Positions 16,254 through 46,859 of a stretch of DNA of 64,000 nucleotides are shown here, piece by piece. Every line of letters begins with the position of its first letter. Within the stretch, counting starts at the first letter, position 1. The notes under the pieces are model-generated. The model did no database searches. It had not been told where the DNA came from and was given only the letters and a program-made list of their open reading frames with translations. The translations under genes and the position numbers were made by a program. This DNA is from an uncultured delta proteobacterium (GTDB lineage Bacteria; Desulfobacterota; BSN033; UBA1163): contig CAWGAV010000016.1 in assembly GCA_963820625.1 (NCBI GenBank), forward strand, positions 7,047-71,046, in the 5' to 3' direction.

Positions 16254-17660
16254 TCAATCCTTCCTTTCTCTCGATTTTTTACGGCGGTGTTCTATCTTTT
16301 TATTCCACCTCTTGATGTTCTTCTGCTTCACCCGGCTGATCGCCAGTGCCCCTTCAGGAACATCTTTTGTGACCGTGGTGCCTGCACCGATCGAGGAATC
16401 GTTTCCCACCTTGACCGGAGCCACCAACTCCACATTTGATCCCACAAAGACCCGATTGCCGATGATCGTCTGGTGTTTCTCGAATCCATCGTAGTTGCAT
16501 GTAATGGTCCCAGCGCCAATGTTGACGTCTTCTCCGAGAAAGGAATCGCCAATATAGGCCAGATGGTTGGCTTTTGAACCTTTACCGATGACCGACTTCT
16601 TCACCTCCACGAAGTTTCCGATCTTTGCCTTGGTCTTCACCTCGCTCAATGGCCTCAGATGGGCAAAAGGGCCGATGGAGGCTCCCTCTTCAATTTTGCT
16701 TTCCGTGATCACAGAGTTTGAGCGAATGGTCACATCATTGCCGATAATAGAATCTGAAACCTTTGAGCTGGTTTCGATGATACACCGTTCACCAATTCTC
16801 GTCTTCCCTTGCAGATGACAATTTGGATAGAGGAGGGTATCTCTCCCTACTTCAACGGTTCGATCGACATAAGTGGTTTTGGGGTCGACAATCGTCACGC
16901 CAGAAAGCATCAGATCTCTCAACTTTTCCAGTCGGAGTTTTTCGTTGGCCACGGCAAGATCCACACGTGTATTGATCCCCATCACTTCCACTGGATCCAC
17001 CACGATATGAGCAGAACACCTCAAACCTCTCTTCTTTGCAATCTCGACCAGATCGGTCAGATAGTATTCACCCTGAGCATTCTCTTTTCCAATCTCTCTT
17101 AAACCTTCCATTAAAAAGGGAGCCTTCACACAGAAGATCCCGGTATTGATCTCTCGAACCATCTTTTCTTCTTTTGAGGCATCTTTTTCTTCCACAATCT
17201 TTTCCAGCCAACCTTCCGAGTTTCGAAGGACACGACCATACCCGAAGGGTTCCTCAACGACGGCTGTCAGGACAGATAGGGTGGATTCATTTTCCTTATA
17301 AGCATCGATAAAAGACCGAAGGGTTTCCACCTTCACCAAAGGCACATCCCCGCAGAGGATCAAAACCGTACCAGGGAATGACTGAAGAAATGGAATGGCT
17401 TGTAAGACGGCGTGACCCGTGCCCAGTTGTTCTTCCTGGGAGGCAAAGTCAATCTTGAAGTTTTTAAACACTTCCTGAATGCGGTCCGCCTGGTGACCCA
17501 CGACCACAATTGTCTTTTCGGCCTTGATCCCACTCAAGGAAAGTTCAATGGGATAAGAGAGCATGGGAAGTCCCAAAAGGGGATGAAGGACTTTCACAAG
17601 TTCTGACTTCATCCGGGTTCCTTTCCCCGCTGCAAGAATGATGGTGGCAATACTTTCCAA
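16254..17660 (-). CDS. glmU: Bifunctional UDP-GlcNAc pyrophosphorylase / acetyltransferase
   Basis: ILAAGKGTRMKS, QLGTGHAV, GEYYLTD, hexapeptide repeats, GPFAHLRP. Confidence 0.98.
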   Translation of the reverse strand: MESIATIILAAGKGTRMKSELVKVLHPLLGLPMLSYPIELSLSGIKAEKTIVVVGHQADRIQEVFKNFKIDFASQEEQLGTGHAVLQAIPFLQSFPGTVLILCGDVPLVKVETLRSFIDAYKENESTLSVLTAVVEEPFGYGRVLRNSEGWLEKIVEEKDASKEEKMVREINTGIFCVKAPFLMEGLREIGKENAQGEYYLTDLVEIAKKRGLRCSAHIVVDPVEVMGINTRVDLAVANEKLRLEKLRDLMLSGVTIVDPKTTYVDRTVEVGRDTLLYPNCHLQGKTRIGERCIIETSSKVSDSIIGNDVTIRSNSVITESKIEEGASIGPFAHLRPLSEVKTKAKIGNFVEVKKSVIGKGSKANHLAYIGDSFLGEDVNIGAGTITCNYDGFEKHQTIIGNRVFVGSNVELVAPVKVGNDSSIGAGTTVTKDVPEGALAISRVKQKNIKRWNKKIEHRRKKSRERKD

Positions 17661-17794
17661 GTCTCAATCCTTATCAGGTGATTTCACCCTTTTTTATACT
17701 ATGGATGAGACCTTTCGTCAATCCTGGAAAGTTGATTATTAATCTCGGAATAGTTTTGGCCCCTTATAAGACTACGACCTTTTCTCAAAATTGC

Positions 17795-17861
17795 GCCTGA
17801 CGTTCAAGGCTAAAAGAAGTGCGTAGCATTTGGATGTCAATCTTTTGGCCTGCTGTTATCT
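17795..17861 (+). mobile_element. Integron attC-like site 1 (imperfect R'' box)
   Basis: GCCTGAC..AGGCTAAAAGA...TCTTTTGGCCT..GTTATCT. Confidence 0.6.
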
Positions 17862-17952
17862 GAAGCGTGCCGCAAATTCGTACTTGATTTTATCATAATT
17901 AAGTTTTAATATGAAATACAAATAGTAAGAGGAACTTCTCAAGGAGGAAACG

Positions 17953-18222
17953 ATGCCAATAATAAAATCCATTTCAAGCCTGCGCAACCGGACGAGAGAC
18001 ATAGCCTCCTTGTGCCATGAACGAGACGAACCTGTTTATTTGACAACGAATGGTGAAGGCGATCTTGTTGTCATGAGCATTGAGCATTATGAAAGACTCA
18101 AAGCAAGGGTGGAGCTTTTTGAAAAACTCGCTGTTGCTCAAGCCCAAGCTGCGGCAGGGGAAAAAGGGTTTACGCATACGCAAGTGATGAAAAAGCTTAG
18201 GCAGCGCTTGCATGGGAAATAA
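17953..18222 (+). CDS. Phd/YefM family antitoxin
   Basis: IKSISSLRN, EPVYLTTNGEGDLVVMSIEHYE; own promoter TTGATT-17-TAATAT upstream. Confidence 0.9.
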   Translation: MPIIKSISSLRNRTRDIASLCHERDEPVYLTTNGEGDLVVMSIEHYERLKARVELFEKLAVAQAQAAAGEKGFTHTQVMKKLRQRLHGK

Positions 18223-18517
18223 GTACACACTTCGTTACCTTCCTGTTGCCGTTGACGACCTTGTTTCAATATTCGACTGGATCGCAAATGACAGTCCCGC
18301 AAATGCGGCAGCGTTTGTTGAAAAACTCGATCAGCTTATCGGCAACCTCAAAACACACCCCTTCCTTGGTCACATACCACGTGACGAAAAACTCAAGAAT
18401 TCAGGTTATCGAATCCTCGTCATTGAATCCTATCTCGTATTCTACATAATTCGTGGCAAAACCGTTGAAATTCATCGTGTTGTTCATGGCTCCCGGAATT
18501 TGGACGATATTATATAA
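18212..18517 (+). CDS. RelE/ParE family toxin
   Basis: AVDDLVSIFDWIANDSP, LKTHPFLG, GYRILVIESYLVFY, HRVVHGSRN; overlaps the antitoxin. Confidence 0.9.
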   Translation: MGNKYTLRYLPVAVDDLVSIFDWIANDSPANAAAFVEKLDQLIGNLKTHPFLGHIPRDEKLKNSGYRILVIESYLVFYIIRGKTVEIHRVVHGSRNLDDII

Positions 18518-18549
18518 GACCTCTGTTTTTTCCCTTTGCGGCGCATTTT

Positions 18550-18615
18550 AGATAACGTTATTGATGCAAAAGAAGCCAAAACGTTCGGACGTAAGTCTTT
18601 TGCAATGTGTTATCT
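18550..18615 (+). mobile_element. Integron attC site 2
   Basis: AGATAAC..TTGATGCAAAAGA...TCTTTTGCAA..GTTATCT; R'' complementary to the GTTATCT that opens this cassette at 17855. Confidence 0.75.
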
Positions 18616-18775
18616 GCAGGTACGTGTATCCTTCTCTATCTTTTTGTAAAGTGTATAATTTAGCCTTGACCCCATATCTAATTATCCATTCACTAAAAGA
18701 TGTGTGGCAAAGCTGTGCCTCAGCGTGTGCACCGATGCCTGTTTGGTAATAAATTGCGAACTATTATCCCGATGA

Positions 18776-19078
18776 TTGAGTCGATTTTCAACAACAAATC
18801 AGCAATCAGCAATCATTCGCGATTCAAACGAGAAATGGAAACAGATTGGCACTTGGGAGTTCTCCCTCGACGCTCGCTCATGGGGGGAACTTACTAATCG
18901 CGGTACAGGTTGCTATGTGAATCCTAAAGGTGCTCCACAATACGGTGAGATATGTCAACCACCGGATTTGCATAAATACACAGGTTCTAGAGAACAAATT
19001 CCTGAAGATGGCTTTGGGGCACCTCCCTCATATTTGGATTTCCCGAAAGGTCAAGAAAACGAGCGCGATAAATCATAA
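18776..19078 (+). CDS. Hypothetical ORF, probably the 3' remnant of a cassette gene
   Basis: Stop lies 5 bp before attC 3; no recognisable family; 5' end doubtful. Confidence 0.35.
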   Translation: MSRFSTTNQQSAIIRDSNEKWKQIGTWEFSLDARSWGELTNRGTGCYVNPKGAPQYGEICQPPDLHKYTGSREQIPEDGFGAPPSYLDFPKGQENERDKS

Positions 19079-19083
19079 GTTTT

Positions 19084-19158
19084 GCACAACCAGCGGCTGA
19101 AGAGGGACTGACAAATCCACTGCGCTCCTTTGCCAGCCTCTTAGCCACGGCGTTAGCC
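19084..19158 (+). mobile_element. Integron attC site 3
   Basis: GCACAAC-CAGC-GGCTGAAGAGG..CTG...CAGCCTCTTAGCC-ACGGC-GTTAGCC. Confidence 0.85.
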
Positions 19159-19197
19159 CGAATAGACTTTAACATATCATAATGATATAATGGATTT

Positions 19198-19467
19198 ATG
19201 ATTACCGATACCGACAAAAATATAATTGAACAACTGGCCCGGAAGTATCACGCGAAGCGTGTGGTGCTATTTGGATCCAGTCTATCCCCTACCCAGGAAT
19301 ACCGGGATATTGATATTGCAGTTGAAGGCATCGAGGAAAAGGATTTCTACACCTTCTATGGCGAACTATTGTGCGCTTTATCAAAGCCCGTTGACATCAT
19401 TGACCTGTCTAAGAAGACCCGTTTCATCGAACTGATTCTACGGGAGGGCATACCTCTCTATGCCTGA
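19198..19467 (+). CDS. Minimal nucleotidyltransferase (MNT) antitoxin
   Basis: VVLFGS, DIDIAVEG, KPVDIIDL. Confidence 0.9.
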   Translation: MITDTDKNIIEQLARKYHAKRVVLFGSSLSPTQEYRDIDIAVEGIEEKDFYTFYGELLCALSKPVDIIDLSKKTRFIELILREGIPLYA

Positions 19468-19876
19468 TTAGCGTCTTCGTATTGAAGCTGAGTATGAGGC
19501 TATAAAAAACATACTCTCTGCCCTACCTGATCGTCCTCTTTCAACACTCTCTCAGCTCGAGCTCGCGGGTGTTGCCGCATTGCTGCACAATTTCTACAAC
19601 GGCATCGAAAATATCGTCAAACAGGTTTTTCAGGAAAAATCATTATCAATTCCTCAAGGAGAATCATGGCACAGAGATCTCTTGCTTGCGGCAGCCGAAA
19701 AGAACATCATATCTGACCTATTGCTGAATAACCTGAAGCAATATCTTGCTTTCCGCCACGATTTCAGCCATGCTTACGCACTGGAGCTCTTTCCAGAACG
19801 TATGGGACCACTTGTCAAGGATGCAGTTGCTCTGTTCAATGAGTTCAAGCAACAAATTGATAAGATAATAGGCTAA
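19460..19876 (+). pseudogene. HEPN (DUF86 / HepT-like) toxin with an in-frame TAG at codon 4
   Basis: ATG CCT GAT TAG then open frame [11 protein letters not shown]...[29 protein letters not shown] (R-X4-H intact). Confidence 0.8.
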
Positions 19877-19944
19877 CAACGGCTTCAACCCGGACTGCCA
19901 ATTCCGCTGCGCTCCATTGCAGCCGGTTAAGCCGAGCGTTATCT
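19871..19944 (+). mobile_element. Integron attC site 4
   Basis: GGCTAAC (contains the HEPN stop)-AAC-GGCTTCAACCCGGACTGC...GCAGCCGGTTAAGCC-GAGC-GTTATCT; R'' matches the GTTAGCC that opens the cassette at 19152. Confidence 0.9.
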
Positions 19945-20045: not shown

Positions 20046-20969
20046 ATGCGATTCAATCTTCCTCTTCAAAACAAACCTTTTGATGTGGTAGGGATGGGCC
20101 TCAACTCTGTGGACTTCCTCAGTGTGGTTCCAGAATTCCCTACTCCGAATTCAAAAATGAAGATGCTCCGGTTTTCCAAACAGGGAGGAGGCCAGGTGGC
20201 TACGGCCATGGTGGCCCTGAGTCGATGGGGTGTAAAAACGAAATATATTGGAGAAGTCGGGGAGGATGAGTTGGGCCAGTTTTCTCTCCACTCCATTCGT
20301 CAGGAGGGAGTGGATGTTTCTTCCGTGACGATCGAACCCAATACCACGAACCAGTTTGCCATGATCATCGTGGATGGTCCCTCTGGAGACCGAACAATCC
20401 TTTGGAATCGAGATGAACGACTGATTTGCCGCGAAGGAGAACTTCGAAAAGAGGAGGTCTGTTCAGGAAAACTCCTTCACTTGGATGGTCACGATATCCA
20501 TGCCGCTCTTCAGTGTGCGAGGTGGGCAAAGGAGGAAGGTATCCCAACTGTCGTTGACCTGGATAAAGTAGAACCTCTCACCTCTGATTTGATTAAGGAG
20601 ATTGATTTCGTCATCACCTCTTCACGGTTCCCTATGCTCTACACTGGAATTCCAGATCTAAAAAAAGCTCTTGGGGAACTTCAAAAACACACCTGTGGAT
20701 TTCTCTGCTCCACGTTGGGTCATGAAGGCGCCGTCGCTCTGGTCAATGGAGAAATCCTCTCCGTCAAAGGATTTGAAGTGAATGTGGTGGATACCACCGG
20801 TGCAGGAGATGTCTTCCATGGAGGATTCATTTATGGCCTCCTCAAAAATTGGGAGGTAGAAGAAATTCTGAGGTTTGCCAATGCCGTGGCTGCACTCAAA
20901 TGCCGAGACCTCGGTGGAAGAAAAGGAATTCCCACCTTAGAAGAAGTCCAACGATTCCTTTCCGTGTAG
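20046..20969 (+). CDS. PfkB family carbohydrate kinase
   Basis: GGGQVATA, VVDTTGAGDVFHGG, ANAVAAL. Confidence 0.92.
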   Translation: MRFNLPLQNKPFDVVGMGLNSVDFLSVVPEFPTPNSKMKMLRFSKQGGGQVATAMVALSRWGVKTKYIGEVGEDELGQFSLHSIRQEGVDVSSVTIEPNTTNQFAMIIVDGPSGDRTILWNRDERLICREGELRKEEVCSGKLLHLDGHDIHAALQCARWAKEEGIPTVVDLDKVEPLTSDLIKEIDFVITSSRFPMLYTGIPDLKKALGELQKHTCGFLCSTLGHEGAVALVNGEILSVKGFEVNVVDTTGAGDVFHGGFIYGLLKNWEVEEILRFANAVAALKCRDLGGRKGIPTLEEVQRFLSV

Positions 20970-45821: not shown

Positions 45822-46859
45822 TTAGTTTGCTTTAAGAAATTTCAATAACTCCTTATGGAAGAGTTCCGGCGCTTCCAGATGAGGGATATGGCCAACGTCA
45901 GGCAATTCAATCAGGGAAGAGTTTGCTATCAGTTTTGCAGTCCTTCTGCCTAATTCCGGGTATTGCCCCACCAAAGAGAGCAGTTCTTTTTTCACTTTTG
46001 CTTTACCGACAACCGTTCTGTCGGATTGCCCAATGACCAGAAGGGTCTTTGACCTGATATATGGAAATTCATAGCAAACGGGTTGTTCGTAAATCATCTG
46101 GGATGTGAGTGCTGAAGACATGGCCAGCCTCGGGTATTCACCGCTTGCTTTCCACCTGAGAAAAACTTGAACATATTCTTCATAGTCAGGCTTCCATTTC
46201 ACATAGTAAGTTTTATGGTAATTCCGAATTCCTTCCTCTGTTGTGTTCAGTTCATTCCGATATGCTTCTTCAATAGGAGTATAGGGCACATATATTCTAT
46301 AGTCTTCCAGACCAATGGGATTCTCGAGGATCAGATGGCTAACCGTCTCAGGATACATGAGGGTAAATCTTGTTGACAGCATTCCTCCCATCGAGTGACC
46401 AACAACCGCAACTTGCGTTATTCCGAGGTTGTCCACAACTTTCTTGGTATTGATTGCTAATAAATGAAAACTATAATGGATATTCGGTTTTGACGATTTC
46501 CCGAAACCGATCTGGTCAGGGACAATCACTCTGAAGCCGTTTTGAGACAAGATATGGATAGTCTCTTTCCAGTAGGCTCCGAAGAAATTCTTTCCGTGTA
46601 AAAGTAATACGGCCATGCCATTTGGGGTTCCTTCAGGTAGTATGTCCATATAGGCCATTCTTAAGTCCTGACCCTCTATGGTAAGGGGAAGTAATTTTAC
46701 CGGGTAGGGATAGTCATAATTTTCCATTGATATGGATAGGGGTATCGTCTCTTGAGCAATTGTGGTGAAGGGCAGTGAGAAGATCCAAATCAATAAGCCG
46801 TAATTCAACATTTTCGTTGACAAACTGACAAAAGCCTGTGTGATACATTTCATGGTCAA
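45822..46859 (-). CDS. Secreted alpha/beta hydrolase
   Basis: LLHGKNF, PDQIGFGKS, GHSMGG, VGHIPH. Confidence 0.88.
   Translation of the reverse strand: MTMKCITQAFVSLSTKMLNYGLLIWIFSLPFTTIAQETIPLSISMENYDYPYPVKLLPLTIEGQDLRMAYMDILPEGTPNGMAVLLLHGKNFFGAYWKETIHILSQNGFRVIVPDQIGFGKSSKPNIHYSFHLLAINTKKVVDNLGITQVAVVGHSMGGMLSTRFTLMYPETVSHLILENPIGLEDYRIYVPYTPIEEAYRNELNTTEEGIRNYHKTYYVKWKPDYEEYVQVFLRWKASGEYPRLAMSSALTSQMIYEQPVCYEFPYIRSKTLLVIGQSDRTVVGKAKVKKELLSLVGQYPELGRRTAKLIANSSLIELPDVGHIPHLEAPELFHKELLKFLKAN

Follow-up and report, generated by a model that had tools for sequence, protein, structure and literature searches.

A probable integrase-less, partly decayed cassette array with two kinds of folded recombination site between glmU and pfkB of an uncultured Desulfobacterota-like bacterium

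A CALIN is a cluster of attC sites lacking integron integrase, and 15 of the 279 CALINs of Cury et al. have a recombinase pseudogene nearby (Cury et al., 2016; PMC4889954). We analysed a 64,000-nt stretch of DNA (the window; contig C16:7047-71046) from a metagenome-assembled genome (MAG; 2.34 Mb, 35 contigs, 71% complete) in a family of uncultured Desulfobacterota-like bacteria whose members are labelled Syntrophaceae, Syntrophorhabdus or 'Deltaproteobacteria'; in the codes used below, G000 is the MAG itself, C denotes contigs and L denotes loci. Here the 2.15-kb interval between glmU and a pfkB-family sugar kinase gene holds four imperfect palindromes (s1 to s4), all in the same orientation, together with two toxin-antitoxin (TA) gene pairs and a remnant of a tyrosine recombinase, int2. 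We think it likely that this interval is an integrase-less, partly decayed cassette array with two kinds of folded recombination site. A first-pass annotation had described it as a CALIN, a description that holds under the operational definition of Cury et al. and misses the second class of site, the int2 remnant and the decay.

The locus resembles CALINs in the spacing of s3 and s4 (less than 4 kb), the lack of a nearby intI, its small cassettes of unknown or TA content, and its nearby recombinase pseudogene. It differs in that two of the four sites are non-canonical and in that the pseudogene is XerA-like, lacks the IntI insertion and is not an intI. CALINs with TA cassettes are ordinary, and in this respect the locus is one more example of arrays that outlive their integrase and then decay. 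In the Vibrio cholerae superintegron (Richard et al., 2024; PMC13108822), TA pairs likewise make up individual cassettes with a site of their own. By analogy, the TA pairs of the window, of which at least MNT-HepT has its own promoter-like element, would be expected to stabilise the array; unlike the superintegron, the window array is tiny and integrase-less, with one toxin knocked out by a nonsense codon.

In the 'inverted' integrons of the Treponema denticola type, intI is transcribed in the cassette direction. The int2 loci resemble the T. denticola integron (PMC3607928). There, too, the recombinase gene precedes the cassette open reading frames (ORFs) in the same direction, with the insertion site 3' of the gene. 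Treponema has a true IntI with the extra domain, which int2 lacks, and canonical attC sites; in int2 sites the polarity of the hairpin with respect to the ORFs is reversed. With the archaeal XerA/dif system (NF040815; PDB 4a8e and 5hxy), int2 shares the core-binding (CB) and catalytic domains and a score above the XerA cut-off. It differs in its extra N-terminal domain (N-domain), in its several, often broken copies per genome and in adjoining cassette arrays, and the last two features make it unlike a housekeeping resolvase. Acinetobacter pdif modules (PMC7399989) are also discrete, often of TA or accessory content, and bounded by Xer-type recombinase sites, but pdif sites are 28-bp double-stranded XerC/XerD sites of alternating orientation, whereas the int2-type sites of the window are directly oriented, structured hairpins of 66 nt whose R boxes resemble those of attC. 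The searchable literature yielded no account of attC-like arrays paired with a XerA-like recombinase, and the int2-linked system may be undescribed so far; Smyshlyaev et al. (2021) describe the IntI insertion merely as 'not fully conserved' in an integron-like subgroup.

The four palindromes, each found where the first-pass annotation had placed it, are as follows.

17795-17861, plus strand: s1, int2-type site of subtype A2, GCCTGAC...GTTATCT; 65.4 bits with covariance model R2 (s1 is in its training set)
18550-18615, plus strand: s2, int2-type site of type A, AGATAAC...GTTATCT; 70.9 bits with R2
19084-19158, plus strand: s3, canonical attC, GCACAAC...GTTAGCC; 28.2 bits with covariance model R1, E 5e-5
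19871-19944, plus strand: s4, canonical attC, GGCTAAC...GTTATCT; 41.3 bits with R1, E 1.5e-8

The canonical model R1 was built from 14 sites outside the window, seven of them IntI-adjacent from other genomes and seven from the MAG. True IntI genes in the other genomes were picked with TIGR02249 (360-433 bits) and hairpin sites were collected on their divergent side; the strongly scoring IntI-adjacent sites bear extra bases on the '' arm, as in classical arrays. Run with filters off over the whole window, R1 gave significant matches to s4 and s3 only, both full length and on the plus strand, and none to s1 or s2 on either strand. Among 30 test loci, 15 of the 16 R1 matches fell at IntI loci, on the upstream, divergent side of true IntI genes, and relatives of s3 and s4 occur on the divergent side of IntI genes (374-407 bits) at L170 1213-1300 and L176 866-937. 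Covariance models took the place of two home-made AAC...GTT palindrome scanners because the scanners, which gave 162-233 matches, mostly plain hairpins or resembling repetitive extragenic palindromes (REPs), were too noisy and missed site s4' of G043; they served solely for picking candidates. No Rfam family matches the sites.

The structure of the sites follows the same division. Taking R'' as RYYYAAC and R' as GTTRRRY, 50-150 nt apart, the AAC...GTT boxes are present in s2, s3 and s4, while the R'' of s1 is degenerate, with GAC for the expected AAC, which its G043 homologue keeps. Aligning the 5' arm of each site with the reverse complement of its own 3' arm reveals extra bases on the 5' ('') arm of s3 (three) and s4 (four), the classical attC asymmetry; the stems of s1 and s2 are perfect or near-perfect without extrahelical bases, their asymmetry being confined to the R-L spacer (5-8 versus 3-4 nt). 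Folding of the bottom strand gave z -2.8 for s2 and z -2.4 for s4. s3 and s4 have the form R''-L''...L'-R' and are canonical attC sites of integrons. With these two clustered attC sites, 713 nt apart (at least two are called for), and no integron integrase within 4 kb, the interval is a CALIN in the operational sense. The first-pass annotation had called all four sites attC-like, and had named a lack of attC-model matches and of extrahelical bases as what would speak against that view. The R1 surrogate matches s3 and s4, in which extra bases are present; s1 and s2 are neither matched nor endowed with extrahelical bases, and form a separate family.

As had also been noticed from the sequence, boxes are complementary across the two complete cassettes (GTTATCT/AGATAAC around the phd-toxin pair, here phd-parE, and GTTAGCC/GGCTAAC around MNT-HepT), and three of the four sites, s1, s2 and s4, have the common end GTTATCTG. 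MNT-HepT and s4 together are a discrete cassette that begins at G|TTAGCC of s3. Complementarity at the boundaries was tried as a test of orientation and dropped, the relation being symmetric under strand reversal.

s2 has the layout AGATAAC-GTTATTGA-TGCAAAAGAAGCC...TCTTTTGCA-ATGT-GTTATCT. Scanning one genome per GTDB species for its core (AACGTT-N3-7-TGCAAAAGAAGCC) returned 111 stretches against about 22 expected by chance on our own estimate, and about 40 of the 111 are full 66-67-nt sites in other species, from Nitrospirota/Thermodesulfovibrionia, Desulfobacterota, Nitrospinota, Planctomycetota and others. The interior of these type A sites is conserved, and the outer four nucleotides of both R boxes are free to vary around an invariant AAC/GTT, a pattern that is the signature of site ends exchanged by recombination. 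Model R2 is based on an alignment of 21 members in several subtypes, which gives support to three helices: that of the R box, a stem of 9-12 bp and, flanked by conserved GAAG and TTTGG, an inner hairpin of 3 bp. Both sides change in 16 of the 22 pairs, none of 500 shuffles reaches the observed score, and sliding the partners abolishes the signal. The stem is bulge-free, with an asymmetric internal loop of 5-6 x 1-2 nt. Homologues of s1 occur in G043 (R'' AGCTAAC), L192 and G048. Both s1 and s2 are in the R2 training set, and independent support comes from the s2-core pattern matches in about 40 species. s1 and s2 belong to a separate, conserved, cross-phylum site family.

The recombinase remnant lies beside s2.

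18680-18798, minus strand: int2 remnant of 39 codons, read from the sequence as ...VVENRL...ASVHTLRHSFATHLLVNG followed by a stop codon

It gave a fragment match to TIGR02249 at C16:25731-25820 (window 18685-18774, minus strand, in a 38-codon open frame) and corresponds approximately to residues 295-333 of the intact int2 of L030 (L030:1953-3083), a XerA/IntI-like tyrosine recombinase of 377 aa. The statement that no intI is visible stands for IntI proper, since the suggested search of the genome for intI, made here over the entire assembly (71% of the genome), found no TIGR02249 match above the cut-off; the remnant itself had been overlooked. As IntI is above the cut-off in 21 of 55 family genomes, a classical integrase may sit in the missing 29% of this one.

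L030 int2 scores 240 bits with NF040815 (XerA / 'integron integrase'; cut-off 220) and 219 bits with TIGR02249, below the cut-off of 265, leaving model positions 181-235, the IntI-specific insertion, unmatched. An insertion around patch III is the hallmark of IntI (Messier and Roy, 2001), and the distance from GKGxKDR to HxLRH is about 62 aa in int2, whereas G062 IntI, with only about 34% identity to L030 int2, has about 103 aa there. Judged by its predicted protein, which lacks this insertion, int2 falls outside the definition of IntI. The C34 integrase described below and the window fragment were considered as an IntI pseudogene, an assignment rejected on the grounds of only 33% identity to true IntI and the missing insertion. 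The closest solved relatives of int2 are VchIntIA (2a3v, 1.5e-42) and archaeal XerA. Its family is very large (at least 8000 clusters scored, of which the 120 best are full-length and 58-78% identical), and NCBI labels its relatives 'site-specific tyrosine recombinase/integron integrase'. The extra N-domain, of about 75-100 aa, is strongly conserved; it scores 19-26 bits with Pfam HARP in three members, and its AlphaFold model has a pLDDT of 85-89 across residues 11-70. In a fold search the SMARCAL1 HARP and XPB damage-recognition domains were among the top matches (probability 0.91-0.94, E about 0.05; for 4o66, probability 0.94 and E 0.055), and no match had E below 0.001.

int2 is linked to the s1/s2 site family, and IntI is not. 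R2 matched at 11 of 17 int2 loci versus none of 13 IntI loci (p 3e-4; 30 loci). Across the family, R2 sites occur in 8 of 9 genomes with int2 versus 18 of 46 without it (p 0.009); IntI, found in 12 of 26 genomes with R2 sites and 9 of 29 without, shows no association (p 0.28). The MAG itself has nine R2 sites, on C16, C34, C7, C27 and C20. At C34:105207-107885 (L010 5208-7885) the order is nfi, an int2 pseudogene, a site, a PIN gene, a type A site, a MazEF-like pair, a second type A site and an aminotransferase gene, with R boxes complementary across each cassette. This int2 is interrupted after about residue 245 and once more after about residue 281, and its N-terminal half alone scores 105 bits with TIGR02249.

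The geometry of these loci is regular. Wherever int2 and R2 sites were found together (the window, C34, L030, L042, L070, L132, L135, L180, L181, L183, L184, L186, L188, L189, L191, L192, G012:C20, G021:C7 and G028:C38), the site lies on the strand opposite int2, and downstream of it in all but L189. At L189 9673-9734 (G067:C9) the R2-type site directly adjoins, on its 5' side, an int2 truncated to residues 286-372, and there, as in the window, sites seem to land within or against broken int2 genes. The window keeps its int2 remnant and two R2 sites in the expected relative orientation, with no attI-like region left. At nine loci a common region of about 120 nt directly follows the int2 stop codon; it comprises a TGACAAnnnTTGTCA palindrome, CAGCCAGA, and a pair of GATATCCGAA...TTCGGATATC hairpin repeats flanking CCCCAAATTTGGGG, and ends in GAAC(G/A)A|GTTRRRY, beyond which the sequences diverge. 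The first cassette of L030 begins at the GTTAGCC of this region and closes with a type A site that has GGCTAAC as its R''. The region 3' of int2 looks like the attI of an int2 system.

ORFs flanking R2 sites run with int2 and against the R2-modelled strand (25:5 and 21:9), ending 5-60 nt ahead of the site. In mixed arrays (the window, G043 and L184), R2 and canonical sites are matched on the same strand, and the hairpin polarity of int2 sites relative to ORFs therefore mirrors that of the classical integron; phd-parE of the window is among the minority of 'inverted' cassettes.

Comparison of the glmU-pfkB interval among relatives, which had been suggested as a check, gave empty sites, the same cassettes with another junction, or other cassettes. 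The site is empty in 12 of 29 relatives (glmU-pfkB 111-480 nt, start to start). G043, of a different genus in the same family, has a 6.5-kb contig with s1', phd (99% identical) and parE (96%), followed by the 5' half of s2 only, 155 nt with a different canonical attC, and then MNT (100%), HepT (95%), s4' and pfkB (93%). The part of the window homologous to this contig spans 17807-18595, and homology starts again at 19151, in the R' box of s3 (G|TTAGCC); MNT-HepT therefore shares its left end behind two different attC sites. Between relatives, cassette-level polymorphism ends at R boxes. The 1.7-kb metagenome contig L241 is colinear with window 18007-19747, at 97.6% identity. In G048, where glmU is 94% identical, the interval has four R2-type sites and four unrelated minus-strand ORFs, and G019 has two weak sites at glmU-pfkB. 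No R1 or R2 sites, recombinase or TA matches were found in 14 of the 17 long intervals scanned (1.5-6.1 kb, where glmU could be placed), nor any site in the 1.1-kb interval of a further relative, L214. Variation at the locus therefore has other causes as well, and we do not claim a general hotspot.

The flanking genes, the cassette genes and the signs of decay are listed below.

16254-17660, minus strand: glmU, housekeeping left flank; Pfam hexapeptide and NTP-transferase domains
17953-18222, plus strand: phd/yefM-type antitoxin gene; PF02604, 3e-10; 99% identical copy in G043
18212-18517, plus strand: parE-type toxin gene; PF05016, 5e-17; 96% identical copy in G043
18776-19078, plus strand: ORF100, pseudogene; what remains is the 3' part, about 85 codons, of an unnamed cassette gene
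18800-18813, plus strand: 7-nt tandem duplication CAGCAAT CAGCAAT, lacking in the 97.6% identical L241 and the sole indel between the two
19163-19191, plus strand: sigma-70-like promoter ahead of MNT, TAGACT-17-TATAAT with TG; 10 of 12 consensus positions match, a consensus match only
19198-19467, plus strand: MNT (minimal nucleotidyltransferase) antitoxin gene; PF18765 (Polbeta), 8e-10; 100% identical protein in G043
19460-19876, plus strand: HepT (HEPN) toxin gene; PF20797 HepT-like_2, 2e-19, on the frame after the stop
20046-20969, plus strand: pfkB-family sugar kinase gene, right flank; PF00294, 1e-45

pfkB is kept in 46 of 55 family genomes. Both complete cassettes had been read as TA pairs, and Pfam confirms this, with the toxin named relE being ParE and HepT carrying a nonsense codon; by adjacency and family, both pairs are classed as type II TA systems. 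parE overlaps phd by 11 nt, both products look intact, and a promoter candidate before phd scores below the scan threshold. HepT starts ATG CCT GAT TAG, with the nonsense codon at position 4 (19469-19471). The stop is real in this population because the independent contig L241 has TAG too; G043 has TAC. The HepT toxin is probably dead, to judge from its reading frame. This nonsense codon looks like toxin inactivation within a TA cassette. The HepT stop codon proper (19874-19876) falls in the R'' of s4, as had been noted for the HEPN gene. Between s2 and s3 the R boxes are mismatched and the segment is made of the int2 fragment and ORF100, whose stop codon lies 5 nt ahead of s3: this segment is debris, not a cassette. 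Among 38 phmmer matches in 1.84 billion proteins, full-length relatives of ORF100 have 150-290 aa and the domain is always C-terminal; neither ORF100 nor its family has a Pfam domain match.

On the model of integron biology, the cassettes would have been moved by recombination at the G|TT of folded single strands, with IntI acting on s3 and s4 and int2 probably on s1 and s2, and the recombinase would have been lost afterwards. In s1 and s2 the asymmetric internal loop may replace extrahelical bases as the strand selector, and the HARP-like domain of int2 may help it to recognise a branched substrate. The array could have persisted partly because intact Phd-ParE, and formerly MNT-HepT, penalises its loss (PMC13108822). 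The array is probably inert now, int2 being dead on C34 and no IntI having been assembled, unless the 29% of the genome that is missing carries a recombinase gene.

It is a real possibility, one that we put forward tentatively and short of an even expectation, that Nitrospirota, Desulfobacterota and neighbouring phyla widely share a second, integron-like system of gene capture and that s1 and s2 are relics of it. Its recombinase, held with the same reserve, would be related to XerA and IntI, lack the IntI insertion, carry a HARP-like (branched-DNA-binding) N-domain and have its own attI-like site 3' of the gene; its sites, as tentatively, would have three helices without extrahelical bases, a layout co-directional with the recombinase gene and a mirror-image hairpin polarity relative to cassette ORFs. 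By analogy with integrons we infer that such a system is active, and it appears to exchange chromosomal locations, perhaps cassettes, with the classical integrons of the same genomes. The integron principle would gain a new variant with it. Should a Xer-like enzyme that lacks the 'essential' IntI insertion indeed run its own arrays, this principle would be older or more often reinvented than has been supposed, and many 'integrase-less' arrays in uncultured anaerobes would have a partner that the IntI filter of IntegronFinder discards by design. The int2 system is directly testable, the intact recombinase, the attI-like site and the cassette site all being short and defined.

The most serious competitor to an array with two kinds of site, unlikely in our judgement, is a plain classical CALIN in which all four sites are IntI substrates, IntI is unassembled or lost, type A is a lineage flavour of attC and the int2 fragment is incidental. 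It would account for four co-oriented sites that share RYYYAAC/GTTRRRY boxes, for GTTATCTG common to s1, s2 and s4, and for mixed arrays in G043 and L184 as well, in a family where IntI is common (21 of 55 genomes) and a MAG that holds 23 canonical attC sites, two arrays among them; IntI is also tolerant of diverse attC sequences (PMC4889954). What it fits poorly is type A itself, whose stems lack extrahelical bases, which R1 does not match, which is absent from all 13 IntI-adjacent loci, and which correlates at genome level with int2 and not IntI; nor does it fit the conserved attI-like junction of int2's own or a polarity of flanking ORFs (25:5 and 21:9) opposite to that of classical arrays. 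Several points do weigh against a second class of site with its own recombinase. R1 is a home-made, lineage-biased substitute for the attC model of IntegronFinder, which might still accept s1 and s2, and mixed arrays with common GTTATCTG ends may suggest a single enzyme for both site types. Some R2 training sequences came from the scanned int2 loci, so that detection there is partly circular, while the absence of R2 sites from IntI loci is not. No int2 was detectable in 18 of the 26 R2-bearing family genomes, the int2 copies in the family of the MAG are mostly fragments, and the HARP assignment of the predicted N-domain is weak, a lead.

Far less probable is the scar of a single island, an int2-bearing element that inserted once and was eroded by deletions, with the hairpins as its internal or terminal repeats. 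The int2 remnant does stand mid-array, the middle segment is deletion debris, and arrays at glmU-pfkB are confined to a few related genomes (G000, G043, G048 and perhaps G019). Yet cassette content at this locus is wholly different between G000 and G048, the G000-G043 junction coincides exactly with an R' box, complementarity of R boxes over single cassettes is seen both in the window and on C34, and the same site family stands beside unrelated genes in about 40 species. That the hairpins are REP-like elements or terminators which happen to flank TA operons is scarcely credible: they are placed after stop codons, and the MAG does carry unrelated REP-like palindromes, but no T-run follows the palindromes, their outer boxes vary around an invariant AAC/GTT and are complementary across cassettes, their canonical relatives adjoin IntI genes, and no Rfam family matches them.

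In the MAG as a whole, R1 finds 23 canonical attC sites, including two arrays. At C13:112618-117985 (L008 6619-11985), seven canonical attC sites, each on the plus strand, make up an integrase-less array that reaches the end of its contig; among its cassettes are a TIR-domain protein and a restriction endonuclease of the Mrr type. The array at C5:88152-92814 (L009) has six canonical attC sites, all of them minus-strand, on a contig that lacks IntI. In the window, a 27-nt mini-palindrome at 46397-46423 (GACCAACAACCG...GCGTTATTC), in a tmRNA-adjacent island, has a match to the attC model that is limited to the R''/R' ends (E 0.21) and may be a collapsed attC or chance. The glmU leader (17661-17697) has a weak Rfam CRISPR-repeat match (26 bits, where the gathering score is 45), almost certainly chance. 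A 53-nt near-perfect palindrome, GGTTAACCCTGAGCAAGCCCCGGCATTTATGCCGGGGAGTCGAAGGGTTGACT, recurs nearly identically at C4:5855, C5:4181 and 60357, C10:15221 and 36867, and C17:24704, often beside a second palindrome of 70 nt; it looks like a REP or a miniature inverted-repeat transposable element (MITE), and is not an attC.

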